A DNA stretch of 64,000 nucleotides from Escherichia coli. GTDB taxonomy: Bacteria > Pseudomonadota > Gammaproteobacteria > Enterobacterales > Enterobacteriaceae. The notes beneath the pieces are model-generated. The model was not told where the DNA came from. It did not search any database and was given only the letters and a program-made list of their open reading frames with translations. Within the stretch, counting starts at the first letter, position 1. The number at the start of each line of letters is the position of its first letter. Where the stretch lies: NCBI RefSeq assembly GCF_036507355.1, contig NZ_AP027877.1, one strand, 5' to 3'. The position numbers and the translations under genes are program-made. Below are positions 3,355 to 4,768 of this stretch, one piece after another.

Positions 3355-3439
3355 ATGCCTGACCATTCTCTTTTCCGATTGCGGGTGCTTCCCTGCTGCA
3401 TTGCGCTGGCAATGTCGGGGTGTTATGTCAATGCCTGGG
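3355..3439 (+). pseudogene. N-terminal remnant of fimbrial usher (yfcU-like) truncated by IS insertion
   Basis: ATG at 3355 followed by signal-peptide-like MPDHSLFRLRVLPCCIALAMSG running directly into the IS3-family inverted repeat at 3440. Confidence 0.3.
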
Positions 3440-3502
3440 TGAATCGCCACGGGTTTAACAGACACCTCAGAGTCATTTAAGATGGCTTAAAGAGAGGTGC
3501 CC

Positions 3503-3781
3503 ATGAGCGGTAAGCGTTATCCCGAAGAGTTTAAAATTGAAGCAGTCAAACAGGTTGTTGATCGCGGTTATTCTGTTGCCAGCGTTGCAACACGTCTCGA
3601 TATCACCACCCACAGCCTTTACGCCTGGATAAAGAAGTACGGTCCGGATTCTTCCGCTAATAAAGAACAGTCAGATGCTCAGGCCGAGATCCGCCGTCTC
3701 CAGAAAGAGCTGAAGCGGGTTACCGACGAACGGGACATATTAAAAAAAGCCGCGGCGTACTTCGCAAAGCTGTCCGACTGA
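3503..3781 (+). CDS. IS3-family transposase OrfA (helix-turn-helix, leucine zipper)
   Basis: RBS agagagg then ATG at 3503; translation MSGKRYPEEFKIEAVKQV... typical of IS3 OrfA. Confidence 0.85.
   Translation: MSGKRYPEEFKIEAVKQVVDRGYSVASVATRLDITTHSLYAWIKKYGPDSSANKEQSDAQAEIRRLQKELKRVTDERDILKKAAAYFAKLSD
3742..3748 (+). other. programmed -1 ribosomal frameshift slippery site (A7) joining orfA and orfB
   Basis: AAAAAAA heptamer in the orfA/orfB overlap, as in IS3-family elements. Confidence 0.6.
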
Positions 3782-4650
3782 GGTACGCCTTTATCCGTGA
3801 CAACACCTGTTGCTGGCCTGTTCGCCTGCTCTGTCGGGTGCTGGATGTTCATCCCAGTGGTTTTTACGCCTGGCTTCAGCAGCCGCATTCACAACGCCAT
3901 CAGGCAGACCTGAGGCTGACAGGGCAGATTAAACAGTTCTGGCTGGAATCGGGATGCGTCTATGGTTATCGCAAAATCCATCTGGATCTGCGGGACAGCG
4001 GGCAACAGTGCGGAGTGAACAGAGTCTGGCGACTGATGAAACGTGTCGGGATAAAGGCTCAGGTCGGATACCGGAGCCCGCGGGCACGTAAAGGCGAGGC
4101 CAGTATCGTGTCGCCCAACAGGCTCCAGCGACAGTTCAATCCGGATGCTCCGGATAAGCGTTGGGTAACGGACATAACCTACATCAGGACCCACGAAGGC
4201 TGGCTGTATCTTGCCGTGGTTGTTGATCTGTTCTCACGCAAAATTATCGGCTGGTCCATGCAATCCCGGATGACAAAGGACATTGTCCTGAACGCACTGC
4301 TGATGGCTGTATGGCGCCGTAATCCCCAAAAACAGGTGCTGGTTCATTCGGATCAGGGCAGTCAGTACACAAGCCATGAGTGGCAGTCGTTCCTGAAATC
4401 ACACGGCCTGGAGGGCAGCATGAGCCGTCGCGGTAACTGCCATGATAATGCGGTTGCAGAAAGCTTTTTCCAGTTGTTGAAACGCGAACGGATAAAGAAA
4501 AAGATCTACGGAACGCGGGAAGAAGCCCGCAGCGATATTTTTGATTACATCGAAATGTTTTATAACAGTAAGCGTCGGCATGGTTCCAGCGATCAGATGT
4601 CACCGACAGAATATGAAAACCAGTATTATCAACGGCTCGGAAGTGTCTAG
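3742..4650 (+). CDS. IS3-family transposase OrfB (DDE integrase), -1 frame relative to OrfA; probably made as an OrfAB fusion
   Basis: -1 frame open from the A7 run at 3742-3748 to stop at 4650; contains DDE catalytic core (DITYIRT..., HSDQGSQY, ...AESF). Confidence 0.85.
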   Translation, partial: KKSRGVLRKAVRLRYAFIRDNTCCWPVRLLCRVLDVHPSGFYAWLQQPHSQRHQADLRLTGQIKQFWLESGCVYGYRKIHLDLRDSGQQCGVNRVWRLMKRVGIKAQVGYRSPRARKGEASIVSPNRLQRQFNPDAPDKRWVTDITYIRTHEGWLYLAVVVDLFSRKIIGWSMQSRMTKDIVLNALLMAVWRRNPQKQVLVHSDQGSQYTSHEWQSFLKSHGLEGSMSRRGNCHDNAVAESFFQLLKRERIKKKIYGTREEARSDIFDYIEMFYNSKRRHGSSDQMSPTEYENQYYQRLGSV

Positions 4651-4668
4651 ATTACCCGTGGCGATTCA

Positions 4669-4768
4669 TAACCTCAATTTTAATGCCTGGTTGCAGGCAA
4701 AAAGCGGTCGTGATGTAACTTCTGGTGACTTCACTGCCAGCCTGACTGCCACTTTTGAGTATATTTAA
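4669..4768 (+). pseudogene. C-terminal remnant of a fimbrial subunit gene (yfcP-like) left of the IS-associated deletion
   Basis: Frame ends ...SGDFTASLTATFEYI stop at 4766-4768, resembling a fimbrial subunit C-terminal strand, immediately before yfcO. Confidence 0.3.

Follow-up and report, generated by a model that had tools for sequence, protein, structure and literature searches.

The yfc fimbrial locus in the Escherichia coli DNA studied here (the window, i.e. the whole stretch of 64,000 nucleotides that was analysed) holds an IS3-family element between two short gene remnants. This raises the question whether the element has simply inserted into a naturally short locus or sits at the edge of a deletion, and by which route such a deletion could have arisen. 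A preliminary description of the same DNA had expected usher, chaperone and minor subunit genes between yfcV and yfcO and had read the arrangement as an IS-mediated adjacent deletion. After alignment to intact loci, as had been proposed there, and comparison of both junctions with public genomes and assemblies, we conclude that the locus is almost certainly an IS-associated deletion and not a simple insertion; adjacent deletion is one of two classical routes to such a product.

Two genomes with an intact seven-gene locus, strain 100181 (L003) and strain JX21CE8 (L014), were used as references. Both show the order sixA, yfcV, usher, chaperone, three subunit genes, yfcO-like adhesin and smrB, with 564 bp for yfcV, 2640 bp for the usher gene, about 750 bp for the chaperone gene and about 500 bp for each of the subunit genes. 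The locus in the window is recognised as Yfc by its position from sixA to smrB and by the gene order yfcV-usher-chaperone-three subunits-yfcO, and its flanks and remnants are collinear with the annotated yfc loci of L001, L002, L003 and L014. A whole-region megablast (2400-7000) was dominated by IS and REP matches; separate flank and junction queries were used. Against 5,426 complete E. coli genomes the left flank matched yfcV together with the start of a "fimbrial biogenesis outer membrane usher protein" gene, the right flank the end of a "fimbrial protein" gene and the start of a "StfH/YfcO family fimbrial adhesin" gene.

On the left side of the element, 85 bp of the usher gene are left (3355..3439, plus strand, ATG at 3355). 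They match the annotated usher CDS of L002, L003 and L014 from nt 1 to nt 85; from there these references continue with CTGAAGATG, whereas the window reads into the IS. On the right side, 100 bp including the stop codon (4669..4768, plus strand) represent the 3' end of a yfcP-like minor fimbrial subunit gene. In the alignment they are the final 100 nt of the "fimbrial protein" CDS at 6597-7100 of L001 (strain OkiPb01695, 99.7% identity); the TAA stop lies at 4766-4768 and the ATG of the yfcO-like gene at 4770, and the reference CDS is likewise located directly upstream of yfcO. The usher N-terminal fragment and the fimbrial C-terminal fragment of the preliminary description are both borne out by these alignments.

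By local alignment the DNA absent from the window amounts to 4,749 bp in comparison to L003 and to 4,752 bp in comparison to L014. It comprises the remainder of the usher gene, the whole chaperone gene, two minor subunit genes and about 80% of the third, yfcP-like one, so that the genes expected between yfcV and yfcO are indeed present in the intact loci and about 4.75 kb are missing here. None of the references shows the same short spacing without an IS, and three contigs described below read through the breakpoints IS-free, one on the left (L017) and two on the right (L023, L026). The right breakpoint has a 1-bp ambiguity due to a shared A. Microhomology at the breakpoints was considered as a clue to the mechanism and discarded, one shared A on the right and an offset TGAA on the left being too little.

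The genes on both sides are damaged as well. The major subunit gene yfcV (2711..3274, plus strand) is a pseudogene, as shown by the ORF list and by aligning it globally with the intact gene of L003: one G is absent between 3145 and 3146, and the ORF stops at 3229 after 172 instead of 187 amino acids. Because an exact-protein look-up found the 172-aa product on eight public contigs, we regard it as a real allele and not as a sequencing error. The yfcO-like adhesin gene (4770..6696, plus strand), annotated as StfH/YfcO family in L001, is split by ISApl1 into the parts 4770-4982 and 6055-6696. Removal of ISApl1 and of one copy of its target-site duplication (TSD) restores an 855-bp ORF, and the resulting 284-aa protein is present exactly on 12 public contigs (exact-protein look-up); the exact product of the truncated N-terminal ORF was absent from the records in the same kind of look-up. 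A chaperone-usher operon is operationally defined by the presence of both usher and chaperone (PMC3559732). With the usher gene down to 85 bp and the chaperone gene gone, the yfc locus in the window is a remnant and no longer an operon. The frameshift in yfcV and the split of yfcO by ISApl1 go beyond the preliminary description, as does the second classical route, recombination between two IS copies, which is discussed below.

The IS3-family element (3440..4668, plus strand, 1229 bp) is intact and ISEhe3-like, and full-length copies with 99.9% identity to it are found in many E. coli chromosomes and on plasmids. Its left terminal inverted repeat TGAATCGCCACGGGT (3440..3454, plus strand) and its right one ACCCGTGGCGATTCA (4654..4668, plus strand), read directly and compared as reverse complements, match perfectly in 15/15 bases, have the TG...CA ends of the IS3 type, and agree in position with the ends of six other copies. 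The transposase region (3503..4650, plus strand) was delimited by the ORF list and the NCBIfam profile NF033516 and consists of orfA (3503-3781) and of orfB, which is in-frame to 4650. OrfB scores 338.7 bits (profile positions 110-369) at a cut-off of 160 bits, and OrfA spans positions 1-85. From the sequence, a -1 programmed frameshift at the A7G run (3742-3749) is predicted to fuse the two frames, and PGAP labels the 99.9% identical copies "IS3 family transposase, programmed frameshift", with a joined CDS at matching positions. Transposase profile, two-ORF frameshift layout and TG...CA ends, i.e. all sequence-level tests of family membership, therefore agree that the element is an IS3-family insertion sequence, and its earlier description as a 1229-bp member of this family is confirmed by profile, PGAP labels and inverted repeats alike.

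Compared with the six other copies, the window copy shows a single difference, a C instead of a T at IS position 1216 (window 4655), which lies within the right inverted repeat, and this C is also found in the sister assemblies L021, L022, L024 and L025. The copy has complete orfA and orfB and is one base away from active-looking copies. Among the 5,426 complete E. coli genomes, 178 contain the element in full length at 98.9-99.9% identity; full-length copies are also carried by 702 plasmids from Escherichia, Klebsiella, Enterobacter, Citrobacter, Pantoea and others.

As judged from sequence comparison, the element is likely the named insertion sequence ISEhe3, whose ISfinder type comes from Pantoea agglomerans pPATH (AF327445), but it may also be an isoform of ISEhe3 or a relative with a name of its own. 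ISEhe3 has been described as a member of the IS3 family, IS51 group, with TG ends and direct repeats of 3-4 bp (PMC10425158), and the window element resembles this description of the IS51 group in its TG...CA ends, its orfA/orfB frameshift layout and a 3-bp TSD; the common spread over plasmids of Escherichia, Klebsiella, Enterobacter and Pantoea is a further likeness to ISEhe3. Plasmid pT5282-Ct2, for which the authors name two ISEhe3 elements among the accessory modules (PMC6872532), carries at 97275-98503 an IS3-family copy with 98.9% identity to the element; the first 50 kb of this plasmid contain no copy. The length of 1229 bp also compares well with the 1228 bp of the copy of phage SfIV annotated as "ISEhe3 orfA/orfB", but identity to the SfIV copy is only 89.4%. 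PGAP and PLSDB annotate the matching copies just as "IS3 family transposase", and a literature search for a 1229-bp IS3-family element gave no match. The name ISEcl3, which had also been considered, belongs to an IS5-family element and is irrelevant here.

The bases next to the element carry the argument against a simple insertion. They are GGG (3437-3439) on the left and TAA on the right, so that the window copy has no TSD. In the preliminary description these triplets were given as ggt and taa; taa is correct, whereas the t of ggt is already the first base of the IS and the real triplet is GGG. The statement that a TSD is missing holds nevertheless, and a matching duplication of 3-4 bp, as a simple insertion into a short locus would carry, is absent. 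Six other copies (L005, L006, L007, L008, L009, L010) were compared together with their flanks. Perfect 3-bp duplications are found at L006 (CCG/CCG), L008 (CGC/CGC) and L009 (AAG/AAG), which confirms where the element ends and that its usual TSD measures 3 bp, and the 3-4 bp duplication of the IS3 family is therefore seen for this type of element (3/6 other copies) but not in the window. The remaining three copies (L005, L007, L010) lack a duplication and adjoin truncated genes, so TSD-less copies of the ISEhe3-like element are common and not rare. The idea that the deletion came first and the IS landed later at its junction can be rejected, since an IS landing in an existing deletion junction would carry a 3-bp duplication; for the same reason insertion and deletion must be mechanistically linked.

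The ISApl1 copy in yfcO provides an internal contrast to the IS3-family copy. This IS30-family element (4983..6052, plus strand, 1070 bp) shares 99.9% identity with copies annotated by PGAP as "IS30-like element ISApl1 family transposase", and its transposase is recognised by NF033563 with 309 bits. Comparison of its junctions with the uninterrupted L001 reveals a 2-bp target duplication AC at 4981-4982 and 6053-6054. ISApl1 is known as a 1070-bp element that generates a 2-bp TSD; length, transposase family, TSD and near-identity to named copies all identify the element as ISApl1, and its presence in yfcO is a simple insertion. ISApl1 is also the mobiliser of mcr-1; the examined stretches of the window showed no mcr gene.

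The two junctions of the IS3-family element were then searched for in other genomes. No record among the 5,426 complete E. coli genomes spans either of them (junction queries), and because single-insertion intermediates as well as a two-copy state would share a junction, these are absent from the same genomes, too. Exact scans gave zero matches for both junctions in the GTDB species representatives and for the left junction in the JGI metagenomes, in which this lineage is not represented at all. However, an identical left junction is present on four of the eight contigs with the frameshifted yfcV, namely L015 (GCA_905398585.1), L016 (SRR31122001), L018 (ERZ8898374) and L020 (SRR17480487). A further contig of this group, L017 (ENA ERZ926208), has the frameshifted yfcV, yet its usher gene is uninterrupted for more than 1.7 kb without any IS. 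The identical right junction was found on 4/12 contigs encoding the restored YfcO protein: L021 (GCA_905398585.1), L022 (GCA_047852605.1), L024 (ERR3330519) and L025 (ERR11525759). All four begin inside the IS and have an uninterrupted yfcO without ISApl1; L023 and L026 encode the identical YfcO protein downstream of an uninterrupted yfcP and have no IS. Thus both junctions recur in several independent public assemblies and mark a lineage. A look-up for the internal 4.75-kb segment in the sister short-read assemblies, made with chaperone and yfcP alleles borrowed from relatives, listed only unrelated genomes.

From the sharing of alleles the most parsimonious order of events would be the frameshift in yfcV, then the IS together with the 4.75-kb loss, then ISApl1 in yfcO, as the ISApl1 insertion occurs only in the window's strain. 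The frameshift is probably the earliest of these lesions, because the same allele occurs on L017 next to an uninterrupted usher gene; this step rests on that one metagenome contig.

IS3-family elements transpose by a copy-out-paste-in mechanism via a circle, and adjacent deletions are not inherent to this mechanism, unlike the replicative transposition of IS1 or of the Tn3 type. Our best explanation for the locus, to which we give slightly better than an even chance, is nevertheless an insertion of the ISEhe3-like element followed by a transposase-driven adjacent deletion anchored at one of its ends. The element would have entered the yfc operon at one of the two present breakpoints, usher nt 85 or a point in the yfcP-like gene some 100 bp short of its end. 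About 4.75 kb of DNA on one side of it would then have been lost, with the IS end as the fixed edge of the deletion, which would leave a single intact IS with non-matching flanking triplets. If the usher gene was the first site, the intermediate is predicted to carry a junction of the right IS end, a GGG TSD and the continuing usher gene (GTGGCGATTCAGGGCTGAAGATGAAATTC); if it was yfcP, a junction of yfcP, a TAA TSD and the left IS end (GGTGCGAATAATGAATCGCCACGGG). The yfcV frameshift had probably inactivated the operon beforehand; the loss would then likely have been neutral and have become fixed, and ISApl1 would have entered yfcO later in the window's strain.

Several observations on related elements are in line with such a two-step course. 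In three LTEE populations 14/14 deletion-associated movements of IS150 left no TSD, and in these 14 cases an earlier IS at the identical position was followed by an adjacent deletion (PMC11708052). According to Sekine et al. 1994, as cited in the same paper, the fused OrfAB of IS3 raises the number of adjacent deletions (PMC11708052), and for ISEhe3 an association with a 24.5-kb deletion in an IncC plasmid is on record (PMC6872532). The deletions at IS150 and IS629 (LTEE and EHEC O157, respectively) resemble the window locus in that an IS3-family element is kept at the edge of a kilobase-scale deletion without a TSD (PMC11708052). In these cases, however, observation over time or comparison of many sister genomes showed that insertion preceded deletion, whereas the intermediates are missing for the window: a single IS with matching TSD in an otherwise intact operon was not found among the complete genomes, the GTDB representatives, the JGI metagenomes or the contigs with the same alleles.

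The same product could also result from RecA-dependent recombination between two directly repeated copies, with the TSD GGG for the one at usher nt 85 and the TSD TAA for the one in yfcP, a route we consider possible but rather doubtful. It would excise the 4.75 kb plus one copy and leave a hybrid IS that keeps one flank of each insertion, which is exactly the state observed, with a single intact IS whose flanks do not match and with breakpoints that coincide cleanly with its ends. The end products of adjacent deletion and of two-copy recombination are identical, and the data do not separate them. In favour of recombination, many E. coli genomes contain the element more than once, at up to 21 places per genome, and recombination among IS copies is given as one of the frequent reasons why a TSD is missing (PMC11708052). 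Sister short-read assemblies break inside the IS, so that a two-copy state is compatible with them; in GCA_905398585.1, for example, the contigs L015 and L021 end inside the IS at both junctions. But two independent insertions in the same orientation within 4.75 kb are required before the deletion, neither a single-insertion nor a two-copy genome was found among the 5,426 complete E. coli genomes, the GTDB representatives and the JGI metagenomes, and the 64-kb window contains just this one copy of the element.

The missing intermediates would also be explained if the IS had arrived and the 4.75 kb had been lost in one TSD-less event, the IS never having been alone at either breakpoint, and the contigs sharing the alleles are indeed either IS-free (L017, L023, L026) or carry the final junctions. 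In such an event a circle or a linear copy of the IS could have been taken up at a double-strand break or while a deletion was being resolved, or the insertion could have used two staggered target cuts far apart from each other. TSD-less insertion with rearrangement has been hypothesised from laboratory observations on IS5 and IS481 (Ngan et al. 2024; PMC11708052), and if true here the locus would be an example from a natural population of a mechanism proposed from laboratory evolution. We consider it improbable, because the mechanism itself is still a hypothesis, missing intermediates in sparse sampling are weak evidence, and all 14 cases of the IS3-family element IS150 were multi-step (PMC11708052). 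A collapse of two IS copies or of a rearranged locus into one during assembly is more improbable still. Repeats of 1.2 kb are classic collapse points and the locus was judged from assembled sequence and not from reads, but each of the two junction sequences recurs without change in independent assemblies of other samples, and the continuity of the window through two further IS elements, ISApl1 and IS621, suggests that the assembly is long-read or finished.

The window is E. coli DNA: positions 36000-61000 are 99.5% identical to several complete E. coli genomes, and positions 7000-27000 reach only 98.1-98.9%. From smrB onward the window is collinear with strain A5, with which it also shares a copy of IS621 between yfcL and mnmC (transposase 12308-13288, minus strand). 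Other disrupted yfc (yfcOPQRSTUV) loci share with the window the chromosomal place between sixA and smrB, but differ from it in their lesions. OkiPb01695 has an IS91-family insertion in the usher gene and in Combat11I9 the chaperone gene is deleted, while the window locus combines three separate lesions, the frameshift, the 4.75-kb IS-associated deletion and ISApl1. Judging by the lesions of OkiPb01695 and Combat11I9, yfc decays in several ways.

Yfc is a cryptic, core-associated fimbrial cluster, and in a survey from 2013 it was the sole core fimbrial cluster that was intact across all genomes examined (PMC3559732). Because of this, the loss of usher and chaperone is somewhat less usual in yfc than in other cryptic fimbriae, though unsurprising given the thousands of genomes that can be consulted today. 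We see nothing mechanistically or biologically new in the locus: both the IS and the kind of deletion at which it sits are known, and the cryptic operon concerned was probably dead beforehand. The locus is useful for annotation, as a lineage marker and as a probable series of three decay steps, and matters little beyond bookkeeping. The two unique junction sequences make a clean marker, as they occur in several public assemblies and in 0/5,426 complete E. coli genomes. For the window's strain the consequence is that Yfc fimbriae cannot be made, because usher and chaperone are missing, the major subunit gene carries a frameshift and the adhesin gene is split. This gene decay is ordinary and well understood in kind and common to a small strain lineage, and the probable order of its three events fits the picture of a locus that was already dead and that mobile elements then eroded step by step.

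The major subunit gene yfcV (2711-3274) of the yfc fimbrial operon is frameshifted by a 1-bp deletion at 3145/3146, where a G is missing after GTAAAA, and as a result its product comprises 172 instead of 187 amino acids. Since exactly the same truncated YfcV is encoded on eight public contigs, including one (L017) in which the usher gene is uninterrupted, the frameshift represents a genuine allele, which probably arose before the IS-associated deletion in the operon. Another contig with the frameshifted gene, the metagenome contig L018 (ENA ERZ8898374), is identical to the window in its left IS junction and its YfcV product. 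Within 2200-2500 it differs from the window by 49 mismatches, which cluster in the sixA-yfcV intergenic region. The sequence upstream of yfcV in this contig thus has the appearance of a patch acquired by recombination, or of a mosaic produced during assembly.

At the other end of the series of events stands ISApl1, an IS30 family element of 1070 bp known for the mobilisation of mcr-1. It interrupts the yfcO-like adhesin gene at 4983-6052 as a simple insertion, flanked by a 2-bp target site duplication (AC at 4981-4982 and 6053-6054). Since none of the sister assemblies which share the IS3-family deletion carries ISApl1, we infer from the compared sequences that its insertion would be the most recent event at the yfc locus.

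In comparison with 5,426 complete E. coli genomes, the yfc flanks are mosaic: the best match of the left one is 98.0% identical, and that of the right one, which comes from a different strain, 99.7%. Along the window, too, the highest identity to any of these genomes varies, being at most 98.9% for smrB-cvpA (7000-27000) but 99.5% for the nuo-pta region (36000-61000). Together, these patterns suggest recombination around the yfc locus. REP/BIME-type palindromic repeats (GCCGGATGCGGCG...) between yfcO and smrB (6700-6860) account for the many spurious matches in the whole-region BLAST. Between yfcL and mnmC lies a copy of IS621 (IS110 family; transposase at 12308-13288, minus strand, the element spanning roughly 12200-13500), which strain A5 carries at the same place. 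It is absent from this site in the majority of complete E. coli genomes, which accounts for the matches to 7000-27000 with a coverage of only 94%. This repeat is where the contigs of L021 and L022, two of the sister assemblies, stop.

The IS3-family element itself has a C at position 4655 in its right inverted repeat, where six other copies have a T. This C, which renders both 15-bp ends perfectly complementary, is common to four sister assemblies (L021, L022, L024 and L025). Of six other copies of this IS sampled from E. coli, three (L005, L007 and L010, from strains 06-00048, G4/9 and EC101) are likewise without target duplications and adjoin truncated genes. Copies without target site duplication which are associated with rearrangements thus seem to be frequent for this IS3-family element.
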